In this document: positions 1,697 through 34,525 of the stretch, one piece after another
Position numbering within the stretch: the first letter of the stretch is position 1
How the letters are laid out: each line of letters begins with the position of its first letter
From: an uncultured Bacteroidales bacterium
Lineage (GTDB): Bacteria; Bacteroidota; Bacteroidia; Bacteroidales; GCA-2748055
DNA length: 64,000 bases
NCBI GenBank assembly: GCA_963771005.1
Contig: CAVYRO010000008.1
Location: 197,029-261,028, forward strand
Direction: 5' to 3'
The notes under the pieces: generated by a model
Seen by the model: the letters and a program-made list of their open reading frames with translations, nothing else
Database searches by the model: none
Told to the model about the DNA's origin: nothing
Made by a program: the position numbers and the translations under genes

Positions 1697-2401
1697 CTAT
1701 CCAAGTCTGATTATTTTTACTTTTCCGTTAGTATAGGTCAATTTTAATAATGTGTTGTTCTCAATATATGCTATATCGTTTAATGATCCAATACAAATTT
1801 TGATAGGAGTATTTTTTTCATTGGGAACAAATATTCTTAATTCATTTTGATGACTGAACTTCTCATGTTTTCGAAATATTCCAATTCGACCTGAATAATC
1901 ATTTGGATAATATGATACTCTACGAAATGCAACATCCTCATAGCCATTTTCGCTTAAGCTTTTAATTATTCGATTAATAAAGTCTTTTGGTTTATAAATT
2001 AGAATGATAGATTCTCCAAATGATTTTGTATCAAACTTTAATTCTTCACTCTCATCCAATAGGTGTTCACTAAAGATGCCACTCAGACAATAAATATTTC
2101 CTTTTTTCTCTGAATCATTAACCATCACGGCATTAGCTGCATTTAAAGCAATTCCATCTTTGTTAATGTCCTTTCCAACATCGCACATTCTAACTTTGAC
2201 ATCGCCTAGAAACAATCTGTTTGAAATTCCATCATTAGGATCGGTACGATCTTCATTTTGATCACATATTCTTATGTAATCAAGTGTATTAAAGTAAATC
2301 TCACCTTTATCATACAGAGATTTAATATGTTCTGGATTTCCTCTTCGATACAGGAAATATAGAGTATTATCCTCAATCCATACTGTATTATCTTTTGTCA
2401 T
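1697..2401 (-). CDS. Hypothetical protein (single-gene cassette)
   Basis: 234-aa intact ORF filling the space between two attC-like sites. I recognise no motif with confidence. Confidence 0.5.
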   Translation of the reverse strand: MTKDNTVWIEDNTLYFLYRRGNPEHIKSLYDKGEIYFNTLDYIRICDQNEDRTDPNDGISNRLFLGDVKVRMCDVGKDINKDGIALNAANAVMVNDSEKKGNIYCLSGIFSEHLLDESEELKFDTKSFGESIILIYKPKDFINRIIKSLSENGYEDVAFRRVSYYPNDYSGRIGIFRKHEKFSHQNELRIFVPNEKNTPIKICIGSLNDIAYIENNTLLKLTYTNGKVKIIRLG

Positions 2402-2432
2402 AAAATAATATTTTCGAAGGTTTCATAGCCTT

Positions 2433-2564
2433 GTGCCTAACGTACGAGGCTAAAAACCGGCGGTCAACAGTGCACCACCCCTTAACCTACTAAATTTATT
2501 TTTTTTTGCACTTTCCCCCGAAACTTCCTGTCGCACGCTGGTATTTTAGCCTTTGTTAGAGGCC
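2433..2564 (-). repeat. attC-like recombination site 2a (belongs to ORF-less cassette copy 1)
   Basis: GTGCCTAAC (2433-2441), GTACG, AGGCTAAAAACCGGCGG ... CGCTGGTATTTTAGCCT, TT, GTTAGAGGCC (2555-2564). Near-identical to site 6a. Confidence 0.8.
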
Positions 2565-2807
2565 GGTTGTATGCGCGCTGGCAGACTGCTGATCTACTTT
2601 CCGTTCCCTGTCAGCCCACTCCAACCCTTTGCATATTCCCGCCTTTACTCACTGCGAGCGATGGATAATTGAAAACAGAGCGAGCGGCCAACTGGCTTTT
2701 AAAATATTCTGCCCCAACCCTGAAGCACTAACCTTATTTACCCTTCCGTATGCCCGCAAACCGTGCGTGGGGTAGGATGTGCCTCATGATAAGGATTTTA
2801 CTCAACT
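2565..2807 (-). other. ORF-less cassette body, copy 1 (candidate noncoding RNA or regulatory cassette)
   Basis: About 243 bp with no ORF of 60 aa or more on any frame. It is GC-richer than neighbouring cassette genes, bounded by attC-like sites 2a and 2b, and repeated at 7033-7275. Confidence 0.6.
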
Positions 2808-2940
2808 GGCCTCTAACGTTTGACAATATGGCCAGTAAGGGATAGCGGGTGATTTCTTATCACGATACACGAAAAGTTGAAGCGTGCTACAAACCTTCGC
2901 AAACCACCGAAACCCTTATTGGCTATATTGTGTGTTGGCA
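2808..2940 (-). repeat. attC-like recombination site 2b
   Basis: GGCCTCTAAC (2808-2817), GTTTG, ACAATATGGCCAGTAAGGG ... CCCTTATTGGCTATATTGT, GT, GTTGGCA (2934-2940). It overlaps the last codons of the radical SAM ORF. Confidence 0.8.
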
Positions 2941-4000
2941 TTTCGTTGCTTTTTCTATTTTCTCATTATAGCAAACTAATACATTTTTCTTATCTCCATG
3001 CCAATTATGAAATCCATTTCCCTGGCAATCTTTAAATTTTTTGCAAGATTCACATTGACCAACTCTTGTCCAATCCCTATTTCGAAATGGTTGAAATTTG
3101 TTTTCCCAAACCTCATAAAAATTATCCGTATAAATATTTCCTTGAGAAAAAGTCCTATCAATATTGGGACAGGCAGAAATTGAACCATCAATAAGAATTG
3201 AGCCGATATTAATCCCGGCTCTGCAAAAAAAGTATGAATCCCTTACCAATGGCTCATATTTTCCTACATATCCTTCACAACTAAATTTTACATCAATTTC
3301 TTTGGATTTTCGGCTCTCTGCTATAAAATCCATTAATTGAACAAATTGATTGTTAGTTAACAATAATTCTGGATTATGAGCAGCTCTCCCGATAGGAATA
3401 ATTGTAAATAATCTCCATGCCTTGACATTTTTCGAAATTAACAATTCACTAATCTGTTCAAGTTCATTGATATTCTTTTGATTTACACAAGTTACAATAT
3501 CGAAGTTAATTCGATTGGAAGTTGATGCCAATTCAATTGCCTTTATTACTTTATCGAAACTCTTTTCATTATTTCTCAACCAATTATGAGATTCCTTTAG
3601 GCCGTCTAAACTGATTGTTAATGCACCCATTCCAGCATTTAGCAATGAAATATGTCTCTGCTTATCGTATAAATGACCGTTTGAAACTATCGACCATTTA
3701 AAACCATCGTTTTCGCAATTCTTTTCCACAAAGTTCTAAGTCCTTTCGTAAAAGAGGTTCTCCTCCTGTAAATACAATGGTGAAATTTTGTGGTATGCTT
3801 TTTATTGAATCAACTGCCTTAAAAAGAACTTCTGCTGGCATATCTTTATGCATACTATTTTTTGAGCAATCACTCCCGCAATGCAAACAATTCAGATTAC
3901 ATCGTGTAGTACACTCCCAAAATAAGTAATTCAGTTCGTGAAGTTTTATTTCCGAATCTCTAAATTTTCTGAAACTATATTTTTTAAATTTAGTGAGCAT
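2923..4000 (-). CDS. Radical SAM / SPASM-domain enzyme, split by one frameshift near 3700-3730
   Basis: ORF 3698-4000 carries the CxxxCxxC cluster (CNLNCLHC) and GGEPLL. ORF 2923-3729 continues the fold and ends with Cys-rich SPASM-like segments (FFCRAG...SACPN, GQCESCKKFKDCQGNG). The break lies in an A-rich run. Confidence 0.75.
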
Positions 4001-4366
4001 CTATTTTTCTTCCATGGCTATATCTAAGAATACTTTTTTGCTTAAATCGGTCAACACAGTATCCTTTTCAATATAAAGTCCGTTTTGTGTAGAATCAATA
4101 TCTTGAAATTGGAGGGTTAATTCTTCAAGCATTTCTGTATAAAACGAAAACTTACCTTCATCATTTGTTAACTCATATTGCATATTTTCGGCAATAGAAA
4201 CTTTAATTCCCTTAATTGGTAATCCTGAGGTCTTAGATTTTACTTGTCCTTCAAGTAATAAATCCGGTTTAATATCCTGAGGTGTTCCATAACATGCTTG
4301 AAAAACAAACAATGCTGATGTTAAACTTAACCCTCCGACTATTTTTCTAAGCAAATTTCTTTTCAT
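4001..4366 (-). CDS. Small lipoprotein with carboxypeptidase-regulatory-like beta-sandwich, partner of the radical SAM enzyme
   Basis: Likely start at ATG 4366-4364: MKRNLLRKIVGGLSLTSALFVFQACYG, with a lipobox. The LLLEGQVKSKTSGLPIKGIKVSI...NDEGKFSF pattern is present. Its stop abuts the radical SAM start at 4000. The longer track ORF (to 4537) runs through the attC-like site. Confidence 0.6.
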   Translation of the reverse strand: MKRNLLRKIVGGLSLTSALFVFQACYGTPQDIKPDLLLEGQVKSKTSGLPIKGIKVSIAENMQYELTNDEGKFSFYTEMLEELTLQFQDIDSTQNGLYIEKDTVLTDLSKKVFLDIAMEEK

Positions 4367-4425
4367 GTTTTTCTTTTTATTATCTTGATGATTTTCAAGG
4401 TTAGCAGGTTGTTTCCTGCAATGAA

Positions 4426-4553
4426 TGCCAACGTTTCGCGTATATGTTGCGTACCGTTTACGACAAACGTCGTAAACACGGTTAAGCATAAATTTACGAG
4501 AAATTATTGTAAAGACCGAGGACCCGGTATGCAACATATACGCTGTTAGGCAC
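4426..4553 (-). repeat. attC-like recombination site 3
   Basis: TGCCAAC (4426-4432), GTTTC, GCGTATATGTTGCGTACCG ... CGGTATGCAACATATACGC, T, GTTAGGCAC (4545-4553). Confidence 0.8.
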
Positions 4554-4878: not shown

Positions 4879-5016
4879 GTGCCTAACGTGCGGCGGTTAC
4901 CGTATTTGCCGGCATTCGGAGACGAAAACTTTCATCCGAAATTACTGCCGATTAAATGCTCAAACCTCTAAATACTCAAAAAACCAGGCAATTACGGTTA
5001 CCGCATGTTGTAGGGC
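4879..5016 (-). repeat. attC-like recombination site 4
   Basis: GTGCCTAAC (4879-4887) ... GGCAATTACGGTTACCGCAT, GTTGTAGGGC (5007-5016). Stems are GCGG..TTACCGTA..TTGCC / GGCAA..TACGGTTA..CCGC. Confidence 0.75.
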
Positions 5017-6034: not shown

Positions 6035-6171
6035 GCCCTACAACGTATGGCAATATGCGGAGGCCGGGATTTCGAAGCTCCAACTTATCAAACCGTTACA
6101 ATTTTGAGTAAATGTACAAAAGTTTAAAATACCCACATCCCCCGGCTTACGTATATTGCGTGTTGTGTTGC
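6035..6171 (-). repeat. attC-like recombination site 5
   Basis: GCCCTACAAC (6035-6044), GTATG, GCAATATGCGGAGGCCGGG ... CCCCCGGCTTACGTATATTGC, GT, GTTGTGTTGC (6162-6171). Confidence 0.8.
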
Positions 6172-6900: not shown

Positions 6901-7032
6901 GCAACACAACGTACGAGGCTAAAAACCGGCGGTCAACAGTGCACCACCCTTTAACCCACTAATTTTATTTTTTTTGCACTATCCCCCGAAACTTCCTGTC
7001 GCACGCTGGTATTTTAGCCTTTGTTAGAGGCC
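6901..7032 (-). repeat. attC-like recombination site 6a (belongs to ORF-less cassette copy 2)
   Basis: GCAACACAAC (6901-6910), then sequence near-identical to site 2a, ending GTTAGAGGCC (7023-7032). Confidence 0.8.
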
Positions 7033-7275
7033 GGTTGTATGCGCGCTGGCTGATTGCTGATTTACTTTCCGTTCCCTGTCAGCCCGCTACAACCCTTTGC
7101 ACATTCCCGCCTTTACTCACTGCGAGCGATGGATAATTGAAAACAGAGCGATCGGCCACCTGGCTTTCAAAACATTCTGCCCTAACCATCAACCACTAAC
7201 CTCATTTACCCTTCCGTATGTCCGCAAACCGTGCGTTGGGTAGGCTGTGCCTCACGATAAGGATTTTACTCAACT
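7033..7275 (-). other. ORF-less cassette body, copy 2
   Basis: Aligns with 2565-2807 along its whole length with scattered substitutions. No ORF of 60 aa or more. Confidence 0.6.
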
Positions 7276-7410
7276 GGCCTCTAACGCTCGCAGCTAGGCC
7301 CAGTGCGGGCTTTCGAAGCGATTTCTGTCAAACGAGTAAAAAGTTAATTTGAAAAAATGACATTTGCAAACCACTGAGCTGCCCGCATTGGGTTTAGCTG
7401 TTGTTAGCAA
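7276..7410 (-). repeat. attC-like recombination site 6b
   Basis: GGCCTCTAAC (7276-7285), GCTCG, CAGCTAGGCCCAGTGCGGGC ... GCCCGCATTGGGTTTAGCTG, TT, GTTAGCAA (7403-7410). Confidence 0.8.
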
Positions 7411-7417
7411 CTGGCCG

Positions 7418-7750
7418 CTATTCCATCAGTCCCTTTACTTCAAGGTAAAGTGGTGACAACTCTTTTTTTATGATTGCCCAAATCATCGAAGAGTCTACTG
7501 CATCGTAAGCATGTATGATACGATTTCGAAATCCAACAATTTTCCGGGCGTTGAATAGACTTATTTCAGGATGAATCAGGTCGAATTTGTTTACAGCTTC
7601 TCCGATTATTCCTAATTGTCTTTCAACGGCACTTTGAGTTTTCAGATCTTTTACATAATCTGTAAATGAGGAAATGTTGGATGTGAAGTCCTCAATTAAT
7701 TCAATAGCATGAATGATATCATCCAGGTATTTTAACCCCTTTTCCGTCAT
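7418..7750 (-). CDS. hepT: HEPN-domain toxin (DUF86/HepT family) of a HEPN-MNT toxin-antitoxin pair
   Basis: 110-aa ORF with the Rx4-6H HEPN motif (FRNRIIHAYD). It overlaps the 3' end of the upstream nucleotidyltransferase gene. Confidence 0.8.
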   Translation of the reverse strand: MTEKGLKYLDDIIHAIELIEDFTSNISSFTDYVKDLKTQSAVERQLGIIGEAVNKFDLIHPEISLFNARKIVGFRNRIIHAYDAVDSSMIWAIIKKELSPLYLEVKGLME

Positions 7751-8054
7751 AGATTAAAACTTTAGATGAATCAATGCTTTTTCTAAGATATGGGTTTCGA
7801 ATGGATGAATCAGTCAATAAATCGACCTTGGTATGAAAAAACAGTTCAAATGTGTCCCACAAAGAAATTAATTTCTCACCTCTTTCGATTGGATCAGAAG
7901 CGTCAATTTCCACAAGCAAATCAATATCACTTTTTTCTTTATCGAATTTATCAGTCGTCGATGAACCAAAAGCATACAAGTATTTAACATTATGAATTTT
8001 ACACAAATTCAAGAAGTTAATTCTGTCTTTTAATATCTTTTCTCGAATAACCAT
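7719..8054 (-). CDS. mntA: Minimal nucleotidyltransferase (MNT) antitoxin
   Basis: Start taken at ATG 8054-8052 (MVIREKILKD...). The NTase signature is YAFGSSTTDKFDKEKSDIDLLV (GS ... DxD). Confidence 0.75.
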   Translation of the reverse strand: MVIREKILKDRINFLNLCKIHNVKYLYAFGSSTTDKFDKEKSDIDLLVEIDASDPIERGEKLISLWDTFELFFHTKVDLLTDSSIRNPYLRKSIDSSKVLIYDGKGVKIPG

Positions 8055-8119
8055 AAAGCAAAGATAACTGATTTTAAGCAATTGTCAATTTCGTTTATAG
8101 TTTGTTGGTTCTCGGCTGG

Positions 8120-8253
8120 TTGCTAACGGTCGCGTGTATGAGTAGTGGCGGACTTCGAAGCACTTTCCAATCAAGATACACAGAATTTGATGCGAGGCAG
8201 AACACTCGAATACGCTACACCCCCCGCCATTACTTATACACGATGTTGGCGGT
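8120..8253 (-). repeat. attC-like recombination site 7
   Basis: TTGCTAAC (8120-8127), GGTCGC, GTGTATGAGTAGTGGCGG ... CCGCCATTACTTATACAC, GAT, GTTGGCGGT (8245-8253). It overlaps the last 8 codons of the methyltransferase ORF. Confidence 0.8.
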
Positions 8254-9132: not shown

Positions 9133-10514
9133 TTTCTTTTAAAATAATATTCAAGTATCTCTCCAATAATGAAAGAGTTTTTTAAAATTCCATCTTTAGC
9201 CACAGTAATGTTCCCATGTGCATACTTTGCAAGCATACCTTCAAGATTATTACCACCATCTAACCAATCAGTTGTCAAAGATAAATAGTTAACTGAGTCT
9301 TTTTCCAAACTCATTTCTTTTTTGGCAATCTTCAGAAAATCATTGTATAGTTGGTCTTTTTTTGATTTGTCGGAGTCACTTTCGTCAAAATACACCCTTG
9401 CGGCTACTTCGGTTATTAATCTCAAGGACATCCCAATTATTGGCAAAACTGTAGAATCAAATTCGTTTTTTTCATAAATGTTCAATATTGCACGATAAAG
9501 GTCATTGACTTTCCCTGCTTTTAGAGCCAAGGATTTGCCAAATAATGTATTGTTTTCTTTAGAAGTTGGAGTTTTTCTAGGAGGTAAAGTAATTGGAGTC
9601 TGTTCGGCTTTCTTTGTTCCCAATTTAACTGTTTCATTGCCAAATATGTCAGTCTTTTTATTTTTCTCTATATCGCTATTTACTTTAGCTACATTTTCAG
9701 ATTTTACACTTTCTAAATAACTTTTTATCTCAGGATTTTTGTTTAGTTCCCTTGTATCAACCGTATTGCCTTCAAAATCCTTCTTTTTTAAAACATTATG
9801 AATGATGACTTTCAGTTTATCAGGAAAGGTTTTATCTGTATAAGTTAACTCTCCATTTTCATCTGTGCTTAATCCAAATGTTTCCTTTGCAGGGCCAGTT
9901 GCTATAAACCTATAAAAAGTTGTAACATATCCTTGTCCAAGTACTTCATTAATTATTTCATTTGGTAAATCTAGTTTTCTAACAAATTCAGTAATCGCAA
10001 TCTTAATTTTAGTGTTCTGACTTTCAATACCTCTACGTTTTGAATAATTTATTTTTTCAGGTTCAAGCCATCCCACTTGATTGTTTCCTTTTGCGTGTTT
10101 CCTGTCAATATAGCGATAACACTGGTCTTTGTCTTCTGATACAAGACAATCAAGCAAAAAATTAGTGTCAATATTTATCGTTGATTTTTTATTTATTAGT
10201 GAAGTGTAGAACTTTTTATCAATATCAATAACCAACTCAGGATTTGATAATAATTTATATCCAGCAAGCCTTCTATTGCCTTCTAATACAATTAATTTAT
10301 CTGTTGAATCCCATACAACAACTTTTTCCAAATGTGGTAAGTCAATATCATTGACAATTTCGTCAACAAACTCTTTAAGCTTAAAGTTAGGTTTTGATAA
10401 AAAGTATTTAATAAGTTCTTTTTCGTCAGAATTATAATACTGGTCTGGAAATCGAGCATTCTCATCCCAAAGGAAAAGTTTTTCAATCGGTACTTTTTTC
10501 TCTGTAAAATTCAT
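9129..10514 (-). CDS. ParB/sulfiredoxin-fold N-terminal domain protein with a large uncharacterised C-terminal region
   Basis: 461-aa ORF. The N-terminal segment LIVLEGNRRLAGYKLL resembles the ParB-like nuclease-domain GxxR box. There is a 4-nt start/stop overlap with the methyltransferase gene. Confidence 0.55.
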   Translation of the reverse strand: MNFTEKKVPIEKLFLWDENARFPDQYYNSDEKELIKYFLSKPNFKLKEFVDEIVNDIDLPHLEKVVVWDSTDKLIVLEGNRRLAGYKLLSNPELVIDIDKKFYTSLINKKSTINIDTNFLLDCLVSEDKDQCYRYIDRKHAKGNNQVGWLEPEKINYSKRRGIESQNTKIKIAITEFVRKLDLPNEIINEVLGQGYVTTFYRFIATGPAKETFGLSTDENGELTYTDKTFPDKLKVIIHNVLKKKDFEGNTVDTRELNKNPEIKSYLESVKSENVAKVNSDIEKNKKTDIFGNETVKLGTKKAEQTPITLPPRKTPTSKENNTLFGKSLALKAGKVNDLYRAILNIYEKNEFDSTVLPIIGMSLRLITEVAARVYFDESDSDKSKKDQLYNDFLKIAKKEMSLEKDSVNYLSLTTDWLDGGNNLEGMLAKYAHGNITVAKDGILKNSFIIGEILEYYFKRK

Positions 10515-11370: not shown

Positions 11371-11506
11371 ACCGCCAACGGTTGGTGTATGAGGCGTTGG
11401 GCATTTCAACGCACTTCACTGTCAAACCGCTGATATGTTTATAAAATGTACTCATGTTTCAATTAACCACATGCTGCCCAATGACTTATACACATTGTTG
11501 TGCGGT
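11371..11506 (-). repeat. attC-like recombination site 8
   Basis: ACCGCCAAC (11371-11379), GGTTG, GTGTATGAGGCGTTGGGCA ... TGCCCAATGACTTATACAC, ATT, GTTGTGCGGT (11497-11506). Confidence 0.8.
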
Positions 11507-11631
11507 CGTACTTTTTCTTCAGTCAGGGTGGGCAAAGGCATACTCTTTGACAAGTTTTGGTCGTGGGGTTGACTTTTTGCGCGACTTGGCAATGTGTATG
11601 GCTTTAGCGAGGGCATTTCTATTTCTCCGAT

Positions 11632-13479
11632 TTATGGATTTAAAATGTCATATAAAATATCACCGGCTTTCGTGAGATTTCTCAACAAGTCATCTATTGT
11701 TATTTCTGCAACTCCTCTGTCGTTATAGGTCACATTTAGTCCAATAATTGCTTTATCAATTGTAAAAGGACTTTCCTTTATTTTAGTTAATCTATCACCA
11801 CCAGGATATGCTTCAGGGGGTACTCCTGTCGGTTTGGCAAACTGAACTCCTTCTCGTGTCCAGTCTTTAAAATGTATTGTAACCGGACTTTTTGTATTTG
11901 TGCCGTTATTAGTTACAGAGTAAATATTCTTTGCAATTTCGATTTTTGCTTGGTAATTAATCGCAGGTAAATTCAAATCAAACATGCTTCCTTTTGCAAC
12001 AAGTAATGTCCTCTCAGGTAGCGTAATATTTTTTAAGGCATCAATAACTTTAAAAGCAGCTAGAAGGTCATTTTTGTATATCGGACTTTCCAGGTCGTTG
12101 TGCGACATCGGATTAAAAAGAATGCTTTTGTATAAATACAAACTTTCAATTAAAATCATAGGCGGTTCAATTCCTAAATCGTCATAATATCGTTTAAGGT
12201 TGTCTATCAGCGTTTCAAGATTTGGTGGTTTTACTAAGCCTTTTAACCCTTCACCGACAGAATAGGTTGCCAACAATTTTTCGTGAAATAAATTTTCACA
12301 TTCTTTTCGCAAAGCATTAGCGCAAGCAGGGAAATCATAAACATTAAAGTAGGCTTTTGCTTTTTCAAAATTGGTCTTGTCTTGATGAATAATTTCGGGT
12401 CCTTCAGTTCCTTTGTAAAACTCAACAAATTTCCAGTCCCCAAGATTTAACTTCGCAACTTCATACCAGTGGCGGTCATAGGTTGTAATAAAAACCTGAA
12501 AATCTTTAAATACTTTATCTGCTTCGGCAACTTCTTTTTCTTGAAGCAATTGTAATAATTTCAACCTGTTTTCATTATCCAGACCGATTAAAATATCATC
12601 TAAGAATAAAGGTTTTATCTTCCTTGAAAAAGGACTTTGTTTAACAATCGCACCTAAGAAAATACTTATGGCAATAGCTGAAAGCTTTGCTTCATTTAAA
12701 ACAAACTGAGGATTATGGGCATCTAAATAAATTCCAGCACTTTCAACCAAAAGCAAAATCTTACTTTCAGTGATATTACCCCATTGATTTGTTGTTATTG
12801 TTCTACGTTGGAACTCAATTTTCAAGTCAGGGATTAGTTTTTCTAAAATTTTATTTACTGTTGGGGCTAAATAGTCAGGATTCCCGGTTAAAAATAATTT
12901 GTTAATCGCATTGTTAAATGCAATCGCTTTTTGTTCTACCGAAGCTTTCTTTTGCCGGGCAAAATAAAATTCATGACCACTGCCGAAAGGCTTATTACTT
13001 TCTTCTGCTACATCTGTCCAAAGTTTACCTAATTCAATGCCACCTGTTATAGTTTGAGATTTGAAATGTTTTAGTACACCATTTATTACAAGGTCGAAAA
13101 CATTGATTTGTTTACCAATTTTAATGTTGTGAACTGACAGCAAGTGTTTGTAGGTTATAAAACTCTTTAATCGGTTTGCATCTGTAATTGCTGGTGTTGC
13201 AGTAGTTTTTGTTGTATCGTTTAAGGTAAATTTTGCACCACCTTCAAATTCTACTTCTATTGAACAATCAGTTCCACCGTCATTAAGAAATAAGTTACGA
13301 AGAGCTGACATATCTATGTTTTCAACACTGGATTGAAAGAAGTCTTTTAGTGCATAATAAAACGAGCTTTTACCGCTTCCGTTTTCTCCATACATGAAAA
13401 CATTTTTACCACCAATTGGAATTTTCTCTTCCTTGGTAAATGCTTTATATTTATCAATGGTTACATTTTGGATTCTCAT
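11632..13479 (-). CDS. ABC/SMC-type (RecF-like) ATPase
   Basis: 615-aa intact ORF with Walker A GENGSGKSS near the N-terminus and Walker B/D-loop LFLDDILIGLD. Its ATG overlaps the methyltransferase stop (ATGA at 13476-13479). Confidence 0.7.
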   Translation of the reverse strand: MRIQNVTIDKYKAFTKEEKIPIGGKNVFMYGENGSGKSSFYYALKDFFQSSVENIDMSALRNLFLNDGGTDCSIEVEFEGGAKFTLNDTTKTTATPAITDANRLKSFITYKHLLSVHNIKIGKQINVFDLVINGVLKHFKSQTITGGIELGKLWTDVAEESNKPFGSGHEFYFARQKKASVEQKAIAFNNAINKLFLTGNPDYLAPTVNKILEKLIPDLKIEFQRRTITTNQWGNITESKILLLVESAGIYLDAHNPQFVLNEAKLSAIAISIFLGAIVKQSPFSRKIKPLFLDDILIGLDNENRLKLLQLLQEKEVAEADKVFKDFQVFITTYDRHWYEVAKLNLGDWKFVEFYKGTEGPEIIHQDKTNFEKAKAYFNVYDFPACANALRKECENLFHEKLLATYSVGEGLKGLVKPPNLETLIDNLKRYYDDLGIEPPMILIESLYLYKSILFNPMSHNDLESPIYKNDLLAAFKVIDALKNITLPERTLLVAKGSMFDLNLPAINYQAKIEIAKNIYSVTNNGTNTKSPVTIHFKDWTREGVQFAKPTGVPPEAYPGGDRLTKIKESPFTIDKAIIGLNVTYNDRGVAEITIDDLLRNLTKAGDILYDILNP

Positions 13480-16400
13480 TTTAAAGCTTCTTTTATTATT
13501 CTCACTTCTTCAATGCTGTCCAGAGTCTCAATGGCATATTTTACCGGGTGGTTGTCGTCATACAAACGTTCAAACTCACTTTGTACAATTGCCAATTTTT
13601 CTTCCGGACTCATGGTCTCATTTATTGGTTTTAGATTACCTAAGTGTTTGATTATTTCTTTATCAGCTGATTTGAGTTCTTTGGGGAAGTAAAGTTCATA
13701 AACTATTTCATTTATCAATTCAAAGAAAAACTGTTCATACAATTCATTTAATGAAAAGGAAAAAATGCAATACTGCCTAATGACTATTATTAAATTAGCA
13801 ATATCAGAATCATATGAAGGCAACGGAAAATTCCGAATATCAGTCACAAGAATTTTAGGAAAATCACCTTTTGTTGCTTTAGGTGAAGCATTAAAATGAT
13901 AGAAGGTTGCAATAGTTGAATTTAGAATTCCCCATAACCATTCAAGTGAATAACTGGTATTTTCCTTATTTATAATCGAAATAATTTGTGGGTCATTAAC
14001 CAGATGTTCTTCAACAATGCAGGCAATTATTGTTGGATTAGTAATTTCTCTAACTAAAACTCTCTTCCTATTAAAGTACCTTGGCTCGATATAGCCAGCA
14101 AGGTGTTTGCCATACCATATGTATGAATCAGCTTTCGAGTAACTGTATTTATTCAGGTTCCTACCTTGAATTTCTTGTTCATATTCTGATGATATTTTTT
14201 CAGTACTATGCCATTCTCTATTGTCAACAATAGAATTTCCATTTTCTTTTCCATAGGTTTTTATTAAATCACTCCTTCTGTATGGAATATAACCTTGCGA
14301 TATGTCAAACAAATTTTCAAGATTATTTCTTTTTTCTGTTATCCTCTTTATAGTTTCGACAGTAGTTGGGCTTAATTTAAATGCTAATCCCCAATTTTTA
14401 TTGAAAGATGTGATTTCTTCTTTTGAAATTTCTAATCTTGGTCTTGAAATTAATTCTATGAAACTATTTGCCTCATTGGTATTTCGATATCCAATACTAA
14501 TTGTTTCTTTAGTTAAACCTTTAGACCAATTGAAAATTGTATTTCTTACAACTGCACTCTCAAAAAACTTAAAGTTTGTACAATCCAAAATTTCATTTAC
14601 TGTCCACCTATCTAAAATCTTATTTCTATAATTTTCAGCAAATACATTAAACAATATGGAATTAGGAATTATAAAGGTATTGCATCCATTATTGTGTAAA
14701 AGCTTGAAAGAAAGTTCTATGAAAAAATAGTATATCTCATAATCAGGGACTTTTTCAAATTGCTTCAAAACTATCTTTCTGTAATCATCTTTTATTGATA
14801 CACCATATGGTGGATTTCCAATCACCACATCAAAACCGCCCTTTTCGTGCCAAACCTCTGAGAAATAGAGTTTGAAATCAAAGTCGATTTTATATCCTGC
14901 AAATTCTTCAATCTCATCTAATAGTTGTCTGATTTTCTTGTTTATCTGTAGGCGAAGTTCTTTCTTTTTAGTTTCATTTGTTTCATCATAAAAAAGTGGT
15001 TTTAATCTTTCTATTTCTTTTAGAAGTTCATCATTTGGTAAAACATCTGTTGGCTTACCAATTAATGAGTTGCCGCAAACAATTTTATAATCCAGATTTG
15101 GCAGGGTTTCAATGGGGTCAAGGTCATCTTCGTCGACCACAAGCGAAAGCCACAAACGCAAACGGGCAATATCAATTGCTGAAGCATCAATATCTACTCC
15201 GTAAATGCTTTCTTGAATAATATGGCGTTTTAATCGATAGATATAACGACTTTCGTTGATACTCTCGTGAAACTGAAAACCAAAGCCATCTAATTTTTTA
15301 TTCAAATAAGCATTGCTTAAATGCGGCATTAATACTAATTGTGCATTTACTAATTCATGTAACAAACCCACCGGAAAAGCCCCCGAGCCAATAGCAGGGT
15401 CGCAAATTCGTATTTCTGTTAATTTCCGGTCAATCAACTCTGCATTATTTCTAATGCTTTCAGGAATTTGGTATTTATAATCTTTGGTTTCTGTTCCTTT
15501 GTTTGCAACACGCTGGTCGTTTTCCAACGCAAAGTTTCCTTCTCGAATATAAACTTCTATGTCGTCTTTCTTAACTTTTTCTTCCAGTGCATTGTCCAAA
15601 TAATGTATCAGGCTTTCCTGGCACATATAATGCACAATTTCACGCGGAGTATAAAACGCGCCATTACCTTTTCGATCGTTTATCATCGAAAAGATTTTCA
15701 AAAACTTTTCCCAACATTTCCGGGTCAACAGCTACTTCTTTGTCCAGCGGCTCGTCTTCTTTTATGGTAAAGTTGTAGCGGTCAAAAACATCCAAAACTC
15801 CGGTTCCCTTATCTCCGGCTTTGTTTTTTTCTTCATTACTGAAATAGATTTTCGGGAATGGTAATGTTGGCAGTTTCCCAATCGTATTCTGCTTCAAACA
15901 ATCCTCCATTTAAAAATGGAATCCGGCAATCAAATCGTTTGTAATAAGAGTTTTCATTGTTCCGTTCTTTTGCCAATGCTTCGTAAAACAAGGGTTGCAG
16001 AATAATCTTTAAAGTAATTTTGGTTTTTTCTTTGAGCTTCTTCAAACAATTCCTGAATAAAACGTTTTTTTCCTTTTCCCCAATGTTCGTTTTGTGGTAC
16101 ACCCAGCCAGCCTTTTTTCTGCAAAAAATAGAGAAATACAATTTGCCCGAGTAGTTTTTTTGTAAATCGGGTGTTGTCAATATTCGCCTTTTCTAATTCG
16201 GATTGAATGTGCGTGTCGTTTTCAAAATGTTCGTACAGTTTAACATACAAATCTTTGTATTGACCGAAAAATTCATCGGTGACTTTTTCAATGCTAAAAG
16301 CATTTTCAATTTCTTCAATGGTAGGATTATTGCATATGTTTTGAAGTAATGGCAGAATTTGGTTTTTGCGTGTATGTGCTTTTTCATATTCACCCACCAG

Positions 16401-16867
16401 AAAGGAATACCTTTTTGCAGGTGTAAATTCTTTTCGGGTTTTTACCTTTTGTTTTTCTTCATCTAAGATACGACTGATGTTCGAGTTTAATGAACGAAAA
16501 ACGCCAGTCGGCTCCATCATCTTCTTTTGAATAAAAAGCAACAAGAGCATAATCTTTTTCAAATTTGCTCAGGTGTTTAATCACAAAATTTCGTAATGCG
16601 GTTCTGGCTCGTTCCAGTTTCGCACCGCTTTTCACTTCAACAATTAAAACGTCCAGCGCTTCGCCTTCCGGGTCAATGTACTTGCCAATTCGTTTGTAGG
16701 TGTTGATGTGTTCTTTGTGGTCGTCCCAAATATATTGTCCGCTGTAGACATTGCTTTTGGGTTCAATATCATTCAGCAAGTTTTTGACAAACAGTGTAAA
16801 CCGGCTTTCATCAAACCTTTACTTGAATGTTTCTTCGATTAAGTGATATGGCAGTATTTTTATCCAT
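13476..16867 (-). CDS. Large Eco57I/type IIG-like N6-adenine DNA methyltransferase; N-terminal third fragmented by frameshifts
   Basis: The intact 750-aa C-terminal ORF carries CDPAIGSGAFP (SAM motif I) and VVIGNPPYG (motif IV). The fragments 15664-15909, 15836-16180, 15954-16562 and 16459-16779 read as one continuous N-terminal region (e.g. QIVFLYFLQKKGWLG). The proposed ATG at 16867-16865 (MDKNTAISL...) comes from manual translation. Confidence 0.7.
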
Positions 16868-19800
16868 AATTATTTAATAAGGTATCCTGATAAAATGACT
16901 TCACGTTTTTGAAAAGCTTTTTTCGTGCTGTACTGTTTTCAATGGCAATTGCTCGAATGTGTTTTCTTAAAATATTGAGTGCTTCCAATGGGTCGATGGT
17001 TTTTTCCAATTCATTTTTAATGTCCCGGGCAGTGCGTTTTGCCATTGTACCCAGCTACTAAAATATTTTTCACACTTTCTAATAAATTCATCGTCCGAAT
17101 CGGTAAAGCTTTTGACAGTTTTTAAAGATTTATCTTTTAAGCGTTTTTCGATGTATTTTACATTTGAACGCCCGCCGGCGAGTTTTTTGCGGTTCATCGC
17201 CAATGGTGGTGTCCAACTCAAAGCGAGCCCTGTTTGTCTGTAAAAGATGGTAATAATCGTCAGGGATTTTTGCCCTTTTGGTTAAAGGTTTACATTCCAG
17301 ATTATAAACTGCATCAAAAAAAGTAATTTCATCTGAGCTGCCCTTTTTGTTGAGATAGAATTTTTTGAGTTTACCAATCCTGAAAAAAGTAAGTAGTTGA
17401 TTGGCTTCAATTTTTGACTTTTATAAATCCTGAACGGGCTTTTTTAGGTAGGTTTTTTATTTTTTGAAATAAATCAGGATTTTCATCTCTTATTTTTCGC
17501 ATCATTTCCAGATACTTCAATTCCGAATCGCCTTCTTCATCTTCTCCGGTGTAGGCCTTTTTGTTATTCAAGGTGTTAAACAATTCCTGACTTCCAATTT
17601 CTTCGCCATCGGTCAGGTATTTGGCATCTTCACCCAAAATATCATGAAACATCTGGATTTTATTGGTGATGTTCATTTCCAATCCAAGATGTGCATCCGA
17701 TTGTGTTGTTGGGAAGAAATTAAAAATATGCACATTTGTCAAATGCTGACTTCCCAAACGATTCACACGTCCGGCTCTTTGTAGCACTCTGGTTGGATTC
17801 CAGGGCAAATCGTAATTGATAACCACATTTGACCGATGAAGGTTAATTCCTTCAGCCAAAACATCGGTGGCAATCAGAATTCTCAAATCATTAACTTGTT
17901 CTTTTGGTTTTTCTATTTGGGTCGTAATTGGCTTGAATAATATCGCGTGAAACAGTGTGATTTGATGTTAGTTTCAAATCTGAGTGACGTCCGCCTTTAC
18001 TGGAATAAAACATTACCTATTTAGGAAATTCGTTTAGCAAAGCTTCATAAATGTAATCACCTGTTTCTTTTGATTCTGTGAAAATTACAAGCTTATTGTT
18101 CTATTCAAGTGATTTGGTTTTCTTTGATTCAAAAATGAACTGTTCAAGTTTCGGGTCTGAGTCAACAGTTCTGCCATAATTCTTTTACTTGTTTAAAACT
18201 TTTAAATCAAATTCAAGTTTTGTTTTAAAGTCTTTTTTAAAGTCTTTTGAATCATATTTGTTGGCTTTGTCTTCTTCAACCAATTCATCGAGTTTATCAA
18301 TGTCATCATTTCTCAAGCAGGTCGTAAACATCTACTTTTTTGCTGATATAAACTGTTCCAGAATCGAACATTGAGATAAAGTTTTCATAAGAAAGAATAA
18401 AACGGTCAACACTTTGCCGAAAAGCGTAAAAACTACTTTCCAAACGTTTAACAAGAATTCCTTTCATAAATCCTCCAACATTTCGCTGTTGTTGTTTTTC
18501 AAACTCACTTAGCTGCTTTATTTCCAATGTAAAAAAGCAACGGCGTGTATCTGGAATAGGTAAAGTGTGTAGGAGTTTTATCGTTTGCTTTAAAAGTGTT
18601 TTCAAATTCACCTTCGTATTCATATACAATTTTCTGCGGGTCTTTCACATTCAGGAAAAACCAAACCTTGTTTAAGAATATCGCCTTTAAAATAAGTAAC
18701 AACATCTGACCGTGTTCTTCGAACCATGACATATCTTAAAATGTTGTTTTTAATTTCGTTTGAAACTTCTTTAATGAGAATTTTATAAGCAGGGTCATCT
18801 TTTTCAACTTTCTTTAGCTTGGTTCTTAATGAATTAAAAAACTTTTCAAGATTTGGCACTCCGGGAATAGTTGACTGTTTTGGAGCCTGAAATAATTTAA
18901 GTTGTGCAAAAATATCATCAACCGTATTGTTTAAAGGAGTTGCAGTAACAAGAATTACTTTTTTGCCCCGGCAAATATCCAATAAGGTTGGCATATGATT
19001 GTGTGTTTTCATTTCTGAAACGGTGTGCTTCATCCACAACAATATAATCGTATCGTTCTAATCCTTTTTTAATGATGTGTTCCAGTTTACCAAGCGATTC
19101 AACTTCAAAACTTCGGATACCAAAATCAAATAAAGAATCTTTCCAGTAATCCTTTCAACACAGGAGGACAAACAACTAAAGTTCTGCCCTGAATTTGTTG
19201 AAGAAGTAAAGCTGTAATAAATGTTTTACCAAGACCAACAACATCAGCAAGAAAAACGCCATTGTATGCTTCCAGAATTTTCTTTGCCTGAATTGCAGCC
19301 TGACTTTGATATTTTAATTTCATAAATCCATCTGGCAGAAATGGGTCAAACTGGTCTTCCAGATTTATGTCTTCTTCCAAGTATTCATAAATTAATTTCA
19401 GATAAAATTCGTATGGAGTAATTTGATCATTTAACCATGTTTTTGTTGTAATTGTGTCAACAAAATCATCTGAAATATCAACAGATTCATTCCAAAGCTC
19501 ATTAAACTGGTTTTCTGCAAATTTAACATCTAATGTTTTCCTCAACTCAACATTAAATTCTCGGTTTGCCACAAAGCCAGATTCAGAAAAATTACTTGAA
19601 CCAGTAATTACAAAACCATAATCTCTGTCTTCAGGATGGAATCTGCCTATGTAAACTTTTGCATGAATATTTTTTGATGGATAGGCTCTTATTTCTAATT
19701 TTTTTCCATTTCCTCCAATTGCTTTATCATCTGCTGGATTTTTACATTCTTGTTGTAAAAATTCAATAAATTTCCGAATTCCAATTTCTAAGCTTGTTAT

Positions 19801-20143
19801 CATTTTCATCACTTGTTTCAATTTCAGTTTTCAGGTTTGCCTGAAATTGTTTTTTTGTTCTTTGATGCGATTCAAAATCAATCATTCCGATTTGCTCGTG
19901 ATATTGCAAAATATCATAAGAATCTCTGTCAACGCTTAAACCAACAAGTATTCTGACTTTTTCAACAGGTTCAAGTGATTCATACAATTGATAAAAACCA
20001 CTTGCCCTGAAATAACCAACAAGTACATCAAAAAGTTGAGTGTCTTTTAGTGTTGCTTTAAATCGATTTAATAAACTACTTCCATTTTCATTTGTGAAAA
20101 ATGTCAAGTCAGTTTGGTCAATATTATTTGTCTTCTTATCCAT
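16860..20143 (-). CDS. Phospholipase-D-like nuclease domain fused to SNF2-family helicase; heavily fragmented (8 or more frame breaks)
   Basis: 19763-20143 and 19126-19821 give the PLD region ([18 protein letters not shown]) and helicase motif I ([10 protein letters not shown]). 18620-19042 gives [11 protein letters not shown]. 17407-17886 gives helicase-C motifs ([31 protein letters not shown]). Short fragments continue to a stop at 16860. Confidence 0.7.
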
Positions 20144-20156
20144 TAAATTCAGTTAT

Positions 20157-20438
20157 TTACTCGATTGATTTAATTGTTTCTTGTAAACCAATCTTCAAAT
20201 ATTCCAACTCGCCCAGTTCTGTTAAAATCATTGATTTGATAAATTCAATTTGAATTTCCTTTTCCGGTTTGTCAAGTGTATCGGATAGGATTGGAATCAT
20301 TTCGGTCGTTGCACGTCTTTCATTGCGTTCAATCTTGCTTAACAATGAAGTATCAATGTCAAGTGCAGCAGCAACTTTTCTAAGGGGTAATTCTTTGTCT
20401 TCTCTTGCTTTCCGTAAGTATTCACCAAATGATTTCAT
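20157..20438 (-). CDS. XRE-family helix-turn-helix transcriptional regulator
   Basis: 93-aa ORF. FGEYLRKAREDKELPLRKVAAALDIDTSLLSKIERNERR is a canonical HTH_3-type segment. It is the first gene of the 9.1-kb cassette. Confidence 0.8.
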   Translation of the reverse strand: MKSFGEYLRKAREDKELPLRKVAAALDIDTSLLSKIERNERRATTEMIPILSDTLDKPEKEIQIEFIKSMILTELGELEYLKIGLQETIKSIE

Positions 20439-20603
20439 CTTGTCAATTTATTTTAGACGATTCTGTCCAAAAATACATCTTTTTTATTTTGTTTTTCCAT
20501 CAGCGGGTCGGAAAAGATTAAGCTCTTTTGGTTTTTTTAGGGTTGGCATTTTGTGTCGGCAAAAAACCAAATGTGCTTAATGTGCGTGGGGCTTTTTCAG
20601 TAT

Positions 20604-20741
20604 GCCGCACAACGTTTGACAATATGGCAAGTGGCGGTTTGCGGAGCGCGTCTGTATCCACCGTTGAAAAAGTTTGAAGCGGGCTACAATGCCCGAATTT
20701 ACTACTATCCCCGCCATTTGCTATATTGTGTGTTAGGGGGC
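20604..20741 (-). repeat. attC-like recombination site 9
   Basis: GCCGCACAAC (20604-20613), GTTTG, ACAATATGGCAAGTGGCGG ... CCGCCATTTGCTATATTGT, GT, GTTAGGGGGC (20732-20741). Confidence 0.8.
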
Positions 20742-22055: not shown

Positions 22056-22190
22056 GCCCCCTAACGGTGGCAATATGCAAAGTTTGGGATTACGGAGCGA
22101 TTCACTATCAAGCTACACGGCACTTGATGCGAGCCACAACCCTTGAATAACCTATTAAACCCCAATTTTGTATATTGCATGTTGTGTGCC
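22056..22190 (-). repeat. attC-like recombination site 10
   Basis: GCCCCCTAAC (22056-22065), GGTG, GCAATATGCAAAGTTTGGG ... CCCCAATTTTGTATATTGC, AT, GTTGTGTGCC (22181-22190). Confidence 0.8.
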
Positions 22191-22957: not shown

Positions 22958-23093
22958 GGCACACAACGTTTGATGGTATGGTGTCGTGCGGGATTACGAA
23001 GCGATTTCCTATCAGTTTACACCGACTTTTTTTACGAGCCACAAACGCTCGAAAACCTCTGAAACCCGCATGCACTATACCATGTGTTGGCGT
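22958..23093 (-). repeat. attC-like recombination site 11
   Basis: GGCACACAAC (22958-22967), GTTTG, ATGGTATGGTGTCGTGCGGG ... CCCGCATGCACTATACCAT, GT, GTTGGCGT (23086-23093). Confidence 0.8.
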
Positions 23094-25256: not shown

Positions 25257-25386
25257 ACGCTAACGGTCACCGGTAAGTTTCGTTGCCAGGGTTGTTGTGC
25301 TTGTTAAAATCATTAATTATCGTTAATCCGAATTTACGAATTCGGAGCGAACCTGGCAATGAAATTTACCGGATGTTGTGTGGCGT
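25257..25386 (-). repeat. attC-like recombination site 12 (first attC after the attI-like site)
   Basis: ACGCTAAC (25257-25264), GGTCA, CCGGTAAGTTTCGTTGCCAGG ... CCTGGCAATGAAATTTACCGG, AT, GTTGTGTGGCGT (25375-25386). Confidence 0.8.
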
Positions 25387-25393
25387 GCTATTT

Positions 25394-25687
25394 TTAAAAT
25401 ATCCTTTTTATGTTTTTCCGGCTAATATGGAGATAAACAATGGATACTTTAAAATCTACGATATTGTAAAAAATGGTGGTTTGCTTACTTAGAACAGCTT
25501 TTCGGAGGTGGGGATTATAGGTCGAGACAGGAAACATATAAGGATTCTGAATAATCAGTCCAAGCTGTTTATTTAATTTGTGCTTAAAACGATCAATCTC
25601 CTTCTGGGTCGATCGACTTGATAAATAATCTAGAATTTCTTCCAGATTTTTCAGGGATTCATCTGACCAATGAAGTTTATAATCCAT
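25394..25687 (-). CDS. RelE/ParE-family type II toxin
   Basis: 97-aa ORF whose start overlaps the end of a small upstream antitoxin-like ORF. The sequence style (MDYKLHWSDESLKNLEEILDYL...) matches plasmid-stabilisation toxins of Bacteroidota. Confidence 0.65.
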   Translation of the reverse strand: MDYKLHWSDESLKNLEEILDYLSSRSTQKEIDRFKHKLNKQLGLIIQNPYMFPVSTYNPHLRKAVLSKQTTIFYNIVDFKVSIVYLHISRKNIKRIF

Positions 25688-25904
25688 ATTTTTTCTTCAC
25701 TACTTCATGAGGTGTGGTTCTCCCTTGTTTAATGTCCTGTATCCCTCTTTCTATACTTGCCCGCTCATCATCGGAGAGATCATCCCACCAATCATGGCCC
25801 GAAGACCAGGAATCTTTAATAAGTTTTAAATACTCAATAGTCTCTTTATCTTCCAGTTTGGCAAGCCATTCTATCAACTCTAATTTTATTGTTTCCTGTT
25901 CCAT
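25677..25904 (-). CDS. Putative antitoxin of the RelE/ParE pair
   Basis: Start taken at ATG 25904-25902 (MEQETIKLELIEWLAKLEDKETIEYLKLIK...). About 75 aa, overlapping the toxin start by 11 nt. The longer track ORF begins inside the attI-like region. Confidence 0.55.
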   Translation of the reverse strand: MEQETIKLELIEWLAKLEDKETIEYLKLIKDSWSSGHDWWDDLSDDERASIERGIQDIKQGRTTPHEVVKKKYGL

Positions 25905-25966
25905 CACCTTTTTTTTCAAAGTTATGAAATTTTTGGTACTTTTTAATCGATAGGTGCTCTTTGCAT

Positions 25967-26030
25967 GACACACAACGTTTTTATATACGCAATATTACGA
26001 TATATAGATGTATATCGTAATATTGCGTAT
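25967..26030 (-). other. attI-like primary recombination site
   Basis: ACACACAAC (25967-25975), GTTTT, then a perfect 21-bp inverted repeat TATACGCAATATTACGATATA (25983-26003) / TATATCGTAATATTGCGTATA (26010-26030) around TAGATG. It has only one AAC/GTT box, no second box on the recombinase side, and is the last site before the recombinase gene. Confidence 0.6.
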
Positions 26031-26265
26031 AATATCTCCTGTCTGAAACTTTTAAAATTTTTCTGAACTACACGATGATCCTGTTTCCCTTTCCTTGTCC
26101 ACCCCCCCAGTGCTTTTCCTGTTTTTTGATTTATATGTCACTGTAAAACACTATCTTAAGGAAACCCGGTCGAATAAATCCTAAATGCTTCTTTCATTAC
26201 AGGTCCACTTAAAGCTAAAGGAAAAATTCCGAATTTCCAACCTTTGGCCGGAATTTCCTCCAACC

Positions 26266-28608: not shown

Positions 28609-29349
28609 CCCTTCGACTTCGCTCAGGGACCGGCAACTTCATTCAAGAGGGTGAACTTAATCCGCCTACCGGATAGCACTATTAAAAATACCCCATTCTT
28701 TCCATATTTTGAATTTTTTAACCCATAAAATTTCTGGTGATGAGATTCCTGTTATCGCAGCAGCTTATCGGTATGGGTTTTACCAAACAGCCGATTTTAA
28801 ATTAACATCCTAATCCCATGACCTATACTGGTTAACCGCGTTATCAGATCCGGAAAAAAATCCTGTTTTTATACTGCCAGAAATAATCATACCATAACTT
28901 CAGGGTGGCGCTCAGCGACAGGGCAAACCCAGAAAACACCGGTCCCAGCCGGTCAAAAGTGAAGGAGACGAGAGGCGTGGCGATGTAATCACCCGATACA
29001 ATTACCGGGGAGCGGACCGTGTGAGCCTTACTTCCGCCTGGAACTTTACATGAAAGATCCTGTCCTCTGAACACAATTCCCTCTACCGGTGTTATTTATC
29101 AGAGGTTATAAAAAGGCTTGACGGGTCGTGCATCCCCCCGCCCCATGTGAGTCGTCTGTTTTTTGAATGGAACCTTTACTGAATAATTTTTTGTTAAATG
29201 GAGCCCGGAAATGGAGGTCGAGTGTCGAACATTCAATTCTTCCCCTGACCCGTGCCAGACAAAACGGGCTCACTGAAAATTGTTTAATCTGACTATTTGG
29301 AACTAACCCGGAGAGCTTCACCCCTTTCCGTATTAAATGAAAGCCGGTC

Positions 29350-34200: not shown

Positions 34201-34525
34201 CTACAATCACCTGAACCTGAATTACTGGACTCCAAATAATCCTACCAATGATTATTTCGGGCTTACCATGTCCAACCCTTACCGCCAGGCAATTGAATAC
34301 CAGGATGCATCCTTTGTACGCGTTGCGAATATCACCCTGGGTTACAATTTTCCCGGCAGCCTGCTGAACAAATGGCAGATCGGTAATTTCCGCATTTATG
34401 CACAGGTTAACAATCCCTTTGTATTCACGGACTATGTCAGTTTTGATCCTGAATACAATTCAAATACCTACAGAGATAATGTACCCTTTACGACATACCT
34501 TTTTGGCATAAGCCTGGGTATCTGA
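31210..34525 (+). CDS. SusC/RagA-family TonB-dependent transporter with N-terminal STN signalling domain; 3 frame breaks
   Basis: Track ORFs 31210-32577, 32447-33604, 33601-34113 and 34004-34525 are collinear pieces. The STN-like region is MKNATVRDVVGEIGKQSNIDFFY. The carboxypeptidase-regulatory-like region is VTGKVTNTAGEPMVGVTVVVKGT. Plug motifs are VVAIGYGTVRKSDLTGAV and DVLKDASATAIYGSRGANGVIIVTTKKG. SGGN..TRYYFSGGY lies across the first break. Confidence 0.9.

Follow-up and report, generated by a model that had tools for sequence, protein, structure and literature searches.

A duplicated non-coding cassette in a Bacteroidota integron-like array, probably inserted by site-specific recombination

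Introduction

Duplicated cassettes are contained in the integron arrays of Vibrio, and the integrons of the Treponema denticola type have an inverted integrase gene, which is co-oriented with the cassettes and has its 3' end facing the array. The integrases of the latter type are classed as IntI, i.e. as enzymes with the additional domain. This domain is needed for IntI activity, and recombinases that are encoded near attC sites and lack it are not considered IntI (PMC4889954, which also provides the definition of CALIN); the I2 helix has been described as the innovation that enabled recombination of single-stranded attC sites (PMC7790495). ORF-less cassettes with promoter activity have been found in Treponema-type integrons (PMC6557892), and complete integrons are reported to be rare in Bacteroidota (PMC9024848).

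Here we analyze a window, the whole 64-kb stretch of DNA under study, in which an earlier note had described a 376-bp ORF-less unit that is present twice. We propose that this unit is very probably a non-coding gene cassette of a chromosomal integron-like array, which would have been inserted as a circle by site-specific recombination. The array itself looks like an integron-like variant that is apparently undescribed: a literature search found no description of the recombinase family at its head or of such Bacteroidota arrays, though one may already have been published.

Results

The array and its attC-like sites

From position 1 to about 28,000 the window has roughly 32% GC and its genes lie on the minus strand, and from 28,000 to 64,000, where GC is roughly 50%, it carries a polysaccharide-utilisation locus with FecR, SusC/SusD, GH92, sulfatases, GH28 and GH78, which places the host in the Bacteroidota. 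The SusC-like TonB-dependent receptor of this locus (31210-34525, plus strand) appears to be broken into several overlapping ORFs, so that a pseudogene or sequencing frameshifts are possible.

The cassette array (834-25381, minus strand, ~32% GC) probably extends past position 1. It contains 15 attC-like sites, each of them on the minus strand. The sites were located with a covariance model, R1, which was built from 12 of the array's own inverted-repeat elements chosen by eye and script. They lie at 834-967, 1559-1687, 2435-2561, 2811-2940, 4426-4551, 4881-5013, 6038-6168, 6904-7029, 7279-7409, 8121-8251, 11373-11503, 20607-20738, 22059-22187, 22961-23092 and 25258-25381; no comparable match was found in the window outside 834-25381, the next best having an E of 0.23. 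The AAC…GTT cores are invariant among the 12 seed sites, and 13 of 16 stem pairs are compensatory. In a larger set of 35 sites, drawn from related loci as well as the window, pairing was seen in 91% of cells as compared with 62% in shuffles and 28-38% in slid-partner controls, 14 of the 16 L-stem pairs changed on both sides, and AAC/GTT was invariant in every site (35/35). The plus (bottom-like) strand folds better than the minus strand, as in the site at 8121-8251 (-19.3 kcal/mol, z -2.0, versus -15.1 kcal/mol, z 0.0), and this better folding of the strand complementary to the coding strand matches the behaviour of integron attC sites.

Near-identical attC arms (…TGCCTAAC-GCGTATATGT…ATATACGCGAAACGTT) were observed in two different cassettes, at 1559-1687 and 4426-4551, and the cassettes after the sites at 834 and 4426 share the start TTGGCATTCATTG (820-834 and 4415-4430). 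These like arms and starts may reflect shared ancestry of the sites or recombination between them.

The repeated unit is one cassette with its own site

Global alignment of 2439-2819 with 6908-7287 gave 93.4% identity, with 24 mismatches and 1 gap over 381 columns, and MAFFT alignment of the exact cassettes gave 93.6%, with 23 mismatches and 1 gap, in agreement with the manual estimate of the earlier note (about 24 differences including one 1-nt indel, ~93-94% identity); BLAST assigns an E of ~1e-170 to matches of this sort, and chance cannot account for the repeat. A repeat search reported this pair only, i.e. no third copy of the 376-bp unit in the 64-kb window. The similarity had been said to be confined between AAC boxes, with unrelated flanks, and this was the case: the 60-nt flanks of the two copies, compared without gaps, share 35% (left) and 45% (right) identity, the left flanks reading GTGCCTAAC and GCAACACAAC and the end shared by both copies GGCCTCTAACG, and no similarity ran past the AAC boxes into the neighbouring cassettes. 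The residual likeness of the right flanks arises because both are attC-like sites, which are different but belong to one family.

When the boundaries are placed by the integron convention, with the crossover at G|TT, i.e. AA|C on the plus strand, the ORF-less cassettes occupy 2441-2816 (copy 1 or variant 1, minus strand, 376 nt, 49% GC) and 6910-7284 (copy 2 or variant 2, minus strand, 375 nt). The extent given earlier (2442-2817 and 6911-7285) holds, and the convention moves these coordinates by one base, a shift that the sequence cannot settle because AAC is common to both sides. In both copies, each end coincides with the AA|C crossover to within 1 nt, as judged from sites that R1 located independently. 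The attC-like site of copy 1 occupies 2441-2566 (minus strand; R1 match 2435-2561, 77.9 bits, E 1.8e-16) and its non-coding body 2567-2816 (minus strand, 250 nt), the plus-strand end of which, GGCCTCTAA, complements the R'' box of the same cassette; the corresponding parts of copy 2 are 6910-7034 (R1 match 6904-7029, 75.9 bits) and 7035-7284, also on the minus strand. An R1 site thus ends at both boundaries of both copies, bearing out the claim that the unit is exactly one cassette, consisting of a body and its own attC-like site. The attC site expected of an integron gene cassette was found in both copies (2435-2561 and 6904-7029, E ~1e-16), as scored with R1, the model from the array's own sites.

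Read along the minus strand, copy 1 consists of the start TTAGAGGCC, the 250-nt body, R'' (GGCCTCTAAC; plus strand GTTAGAGGCC, 2555-2564), 3 nt, L'' (GGCTAAAA), a loop, L' (TTTTAGCC), 6 nt and the final G, with R' represented by the G|TT at 2441. The plus-strand DNA of this site folds with -17.6 kcal/mol (z -2.25). Among the 23-24 substitutions and the one 1-nt indel between the copies, 19 differences are in the body (7.6%), and the attC part differs by 3.2% (4 substitutions and the indel), all in the central loop, both stem arms being identical.

The start of the cassette, TTAGAGGCC, complements its own inner box R'', GGCCTCTAAC, with a match of 10/10 (GTTAGAGGCC versus GGCCTCTAAC). All of the array cassettes (15/15) obey this rule, several of them perfectly over 9-10 nt, and thus show the circular permutation that is characteristic of integron gene cassettes. 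Such a rule would be expected only if the cassettes had entered as circles through recombination at G|TT.

The same cassette occurs between different neighbours

As the earlier note had stated, the two copies have different neighbours. The attC-like site of the radical-SAM cassette upstream of copy 1 (2811-2940, minus strand, R1 107.5 bits) carries the R' box (GTTAGAGGCC) that is the entry point for copy 1, and the entry point for copy 2 is the R' of the site of the upstream HepT/MNT toxin-antitoxin cassette (7279-7409, minus strand, R1 104.2 bits). A genome scan with a 24-mer from the body found the cassette in one other genome, a Prolixibacteraceae MAG (L001), which provides a third, tandem context. 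Positions 1-1994 of L001 are 97.5% identical to window positions 4430-2437, comprising the radical-SAM cassette and variant 1, and the variant-1-like copy is directly followed by a variant-2-like copy, which is 97.9% identical to window copy 2. These tandem copies have a spacing of 375 bp, the junction CTCTAA|CGTACG and the same boundaries as in the window. The order in L001 is radical-SAM cassette, variant 1, variant 2, and that in the window is HepT/MNT cassette, variant 2, a cassette for a DnaJ-domain protein, two more cassettes, radical-SAM cassette, variant 1; four cassettes therefore lie between the variants in the window and none in L001, indicating that whole cassettes have been reordered. 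The occurrence of one unit between different neighbours, another hallmark of integron gene cassettes, was thus seen in two contexts in the window and in the tandem context of L001.

MAFFT alignment of the copies showed that 8 central columns separate the variants and that about ten changes are private to window copy 1; both variants predate the split of the window genome and L001. With copies that are 6.5% diverged and variants that are both older than the split, the pair points to old shuffling or separate acquisition and not to a recent event. A 20-mer scan of metagenomes gave only chance 20-nt matches, and a distant blastn search of plasmids and phages found no further copies. Comparison with L001 also revealed that the first cassette of the window (from 25975) follows the attI-like site here and an attC site in L001, the similarity beginning at the same GTT (junction AAAC|GTT).

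A pair of genes encoding a tyrosine integrase and an IS91-family Y2 transposase was observed inside arrays in L001 (2400-4740), L007 (14943-17016) and L011 (13690-15713). In L001 and L007 this pair ends (…GGCGGATTTAGTTCA) 83-84 nt away from the start codon of the integrase gene, right next to the AAC of an attC R'' box, which suggests that the pair targets attC-like sites site-specifically. An 88%-identical copy of the 84-nt end lies at window positions 28652-28733, just outside the recombinase side of the array.

The body of the cassette

The unit had been described as ORF-less, and no ORF of at least 20 aa, on either strand of either copy, is conserved between the copies. The sole co-linear ORF, which starts with TTG on the plus strand and encodes 48 aa, has 8 residues that differ between the copies, and the nucleotide differences in it are mostly non-synonymous. 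Rfam gave no match in the whole window at the gathering threshold, and in 2200-3000, searched to an E of 10, nothing beyond snoRNA noise (E 2.9-7.2); genes for tRNAs or tmRNA were likewise absent. The RNA fold of the body was no better than that of shuffles on either strand (z +0.3 to +1.1), and there were no convincing compensatory pairs among the 8 columns that separate the variants. Neither a sigma-70 promoter scan of the unit nor a regex search in both orientations for TAnnTTTG, the Bacteroidota motif, gave a hit. The 49% GC of this cassette stands out against the 32% of the array, and sequence constraint on the body is not above that of the neighbouring coding cassettes.

Another ORF-less cassette, of 307 bp (R'' TTATATAAC, R' GTTATATAA), was observed in three tandem copies in a homologous array (L005, 16737-17660), and it directly follows attI in L006 (11813-12124), the recombinase and upstream genes of which are identical to those of L005. 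The 376-bp unit has no similarity to this 307-bp L005 cassette beyond that of shuffles.

The recombinase at the head of the array

A gene for a 529-aa tyrosine recombinase (26266-27855, minus strand), the only tyrosine recombinase in the 64-kb window, is located immediately upstream of the array and points its 3' end towards it. The protein consists of three N-terminal beta-beta-alpha-beta-beta-alpha repeats (residues 1-255) and an Xer/IntI-type core (residues 256-529). It aligns continuously with XerA (4A8E), the best PDB match (E 1.4e-36), and in two pieces with VchIntIA (2A3V), having 22 residues where IntIA has 65, a stretch that contains the IntI-specific insertion (I2 helix region, near patch III). 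Its score is 219 bits with the NCBIfam XerA model (cut-off 220) and 180 bits with the integron-integrase model TIGR02249 (cut-off 265), and PF00589 matches in one uninterrupted stretch. The additional domain by which IntI is recognized (IntegronFinder; Messier and Roy) is absent from the 529-aa recombinase, which, judging from these alignments and models, is not a canonical integron integrase. The family as a whole conserves residues 1-255, for which the structure prediction has a pLDDT of 86. The repeats match Pfam HARP weakly, and Foldseek aligned them locally with SMARCAL1 HARP and the XPB damage-recognition domain at E >0.04 throughout, so that a HARP/XPB fold for the predicted structure is only a lead.

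Between this gene and the array is an attI-like junction (25974-26031, minus strand), where the first cassette begins; it comprises a 21/23-nt palindrome (TATACGCAATATTACGATATA-CATC-TATATATCGTAATATTGCGTATA), TAAAAAC and G|TT. The locus therefore has the parts of an integron platform, i.e. an integrase gene, an adjacent attI and a cassette array, in the orientation of the inverted type. Junctions composed of a palindrome, 6-7 nt and G|TT were also found in homologous loci (L005/L006, ~11770-11812; L007, ~11750-11795), the palindrome arms often being TATACGC…GCGTATA or AAACGC…GCGTTT.

The recombinase family is common in Bacteroidota, with >120 clusters of proteins of ~540 aa at 38-61% identity, and the N-terminal region matches 684 cluster representatives (50% identity clusters). 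We examined seven distinct homologue loci, two of which were uninformative, one being without DNA and the other having only 1.6 kb downstream. Among the five with usable downstream sequence, four carry R1-type sites on the same strand (L004, L005/L006, L007/L008 and L010), encode homologues ~40% identical to the 529-aa recombinase and each have several kb downstream; in the fifth, IS elements lie directly downstream. L005 and L006 have identical recombinase and upstream genes, and their cassettes differ from just after the downstream palindrome. In L010 one R1-type site (9579-9705, minus strand, 48 bits) is found on the opposite strand, upstream of the recombinase gene; in every locus the remaining sites are downstream of this gene and co-oriented with it.

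Cargo of other cassettes

Several of the other cassettes encode proteins with recognizable domains. The HepT/MNT pair (7418-8081, minus strand) matches the Pfam families HepT-like and NTP_transf_2. By the R''/start rule, 11503-20607 (minus strand) is a single cassette of 9.1 kb, far above typical cassette size, with a defence-type set of genes for an SMC/AAA ATPase, an Eco57I/MmeI-like methyltransferase with a TaqI_C domain, a helicase C-terminal fragment and a PLD nuclease. The segment 8230-11351 (minus strand) encodes a D12 adenine methyltransferase, a 461-aa protein and an NYN/OST-HTH nuclease, and the first cassette after attI (25394-25973, minus strand) has two small overlapping ORFs with the look of a toxin-antitoxin pair. 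In the multi-gene cassette at 2817-4430 (minus strand), a gene for a CarboxypepD_reg-like protein accompanies that of a radical SAM/SPASM enzyme, which is split between two ORFs (3698-4000 and 2923-3729), possibly because of a frameshift. With the many defence-type genes in their cassettes, such arrays may be a reservoir of Bacteroidota defence systems that has gone unrecognised.

Discussion

How the unit came to be

We propose that a circular cassette would enter a resident site at its conserved G|TT, which is AA|C on the plus strand, the same route being taken by every other unit of the array. Because of such circular insertion at G|TT, the start of each copy would complement the inner box of that same copy, and its last base would be the G of the site that it carries. 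The circular form would join …CCTCGTACG|TTAGAGGCC…, a junction that can also be written …GCCTCGTACG|TTAGAGGCCAGTTGAG…. The two copies would be two old variants of one cassette, each now behind another cassette, variant 1 behind the radical-SAM cassette and variant 2 behind the HepT/MNT toxin-antitoxin cassette. Conserved synteny points to the adjacent 529-aa tyrosine recombinase as the putative catalyst, and by analogy with integrons the substrate would be the folded strand complementary to the coding strand. We infer that the body has no role needed for mobility, which on our reading requires only the attC site; the body may merely ride on this site as a passenger, or it may carry a regulatory RNA, a promoter or another signal that is invisible to the tools used.

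The claim of the earlier note that the unit moves by recombination at AAC/GTT rather than by segmental duplication is supported by the boundaries, the complement rule, the order in L001 and the unrelated flanks. Segmental duplication, whether by homologous recombination or by replication slippage, would make the AAC end points a matter of chance or of microhomology, for which the AAC/GTT and the few neighbouring bases common to all sites could serve. We consider it exceedingly improbable, given that both ends of both copies lie within 1 nt of the crossover, the flanks are only 35-45% identical, the copies are apart in the window but adjacent in L001, and the unit follows the circular-permutation rule like all 15 cassettes; neither similarity extending into the neighbours nor arbitrary end points were found, and the alignment contradicts a segmental or tandem duplication. 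It is also highly unlikely that the unit is not a cassette but a non-autonomous, MITE-like transposable element, or another element that targets attC sites, even though it is ORF-less, is present in multiple copies, has 49% GC unlike the 32% GC array, and has site-targeting elements nearby in the form of the integrase and IS91-type transposase pair that abuts the R'' AAC in L001 and L007. The ends of the unit, TTAGAGGCC… and …CCTCGTACG, do not form terminal inverted repeats, there is no target-site duplication or duplicated flank at either copy as would mark a MITE or insertion sequence, a complete array-type site is present at the exact place of a cassette site, and the neighbouring sites are intact.

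Two further explanations leave the cassette nature of the unit untouched and concern its body and its catalyst. The copies, moved by the same mechanism, might have been kept for a function of the body, such as an effect on downstream cassettes through an internal promoter or a small or antisense RNA. Promoter activity of ORF-less cassettes is documented (PMC6557892), both variants have been retained in two genomes, and the unrelated 307-bp ORF-less cassette is likewise multi-copy in a homologous array (L005, L006). Nevertheless, we regard such a function as somewhat unlikely, since neither a sigma-70 nor a TAnnTTTG promoter motif was found on either strand, there was no Rfam match and no folding better than that of shuffles, the body diverges more than the attC part (7.6% versus 3.2%), the orthologous pair (95.5% identity) diverges more than the neighbouring coding cassette (97.5%), and the unit has no similarity to the 307-bp cassette. 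As for the catalyst, a canonical IntI encoded elsewhere, for instance in the rest of the 1.87-Mb contig, could recombine the sites, in which case the 529-aa recombinase would be unrelated to them and the array would be a CALIN beside an Xer-like gene. This would accord with reports that the additional domain is necessary and that domain-less recombinases near attC are not IntI (PMC4889954; PMC7790495), and with a view that is limited to 64 kb of the genome. It seems unlikely in light of the position of the recombinase gene at the head of the array, next to a palindrome and GTT junction and in the same orientation as the cassettes, an arrangement kept by ~40%-identity homologues in four of the five loci with usable downstream sequence. 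In addition, cassette content diverges exactly after the junction in L005 versus L006, and the window contains no second tyrosine recombinase.

Insertion of a circular cassette through AAC/GTT is thus the reading that we prefer for both copies. For the array as a whole, we tentatively suggest that it might be run by an undescribed Bacteroidota clade of recombinases, with Xer/IntI cores that lack the I2 helix and with N-terminal repeats, acting on hairpins of ~125 nt. We hypothesize that the N-terminal repeats bind DNA structure-specifically. If so, these enzymes would amount to a second version of the integron, independently built or ancestral, and the ORF-less duplicate would be a footprint of recombinase activity.

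Comparison with known systems

A cassette that is present twice is routine integron biology, and the duplication itself is ordinary for integron-type arrays; the value of this duplicate is that it provides clean sequence-level proof that the units of the array move whole through the AAC/GTT crossover. What sets the platform apart is that it works like an integron but fails the test that defines IntI. If the 529-aa enzyme is the catalyst, Bacteroidota would capture cassettes in a form that current tools label as orphan attC clusters, and the arrays would constitute a natural test of hairpin-site recombination without I2.

Comparison of the array with sedentary chromosomal integrons, such as the Vibrio superintegron, revealed many shared features. 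These include co-oriented units, sites that are imperfect palindromes with AAC…GTT cores, the G|TT crossover, cassette starts that complement their own R'', the recurrence of the same cassette, a cargo of toxin-antitoxin and defence genes, and ORF-less cassettes, examples of which are known (PMC6557892). In contrast, the IntI-specific insertion is missing from the recombinase of the present array, the N-terminus of which is extended by 255 aa; the array's sites, uniformly ~125-131 nt, have an asymmetric internal loop (5-6 versus 2-3 nt) and a stem of 17-19 bp in which no extrahelical bases are obvious; the attI-like site is palindromic, whereas the attI of classical integrons is double-stranded and has direct repeats; and the host belongs to the Bacteroidota. 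Integrons of the Treponema denticola type are alike in having the integrase gene co-oriented with the cassettes, its 3' end toward the array, and in the ORF-less cassettes described in that group (PMC6557892), but they differ in that the recombinase here lacks the IntI additional domain.

A scan of the IntegronFinder type would probably assign the array to the CALIN, as there is no intI_Cterm-positive gene nearby. Unlike in CALIN, a conserved recombinase family is consistently found at the array head, and the array is therefore probably not an orphan. Finally, Xer/dif-type modules (pdif on Acinetobacter plasmids, IMEX) share with the present system an Xer-like core and modules bounded by palindromic sites. 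However, dif-like sites are ~28 bp, double-stranded and crossed over in the central spacer, whereas the sites described here are hairpins of ~125 nt with covarying stems and a crossover outside the stem, and they are organized in unidirectional arrays with a recombinase gene at the head.
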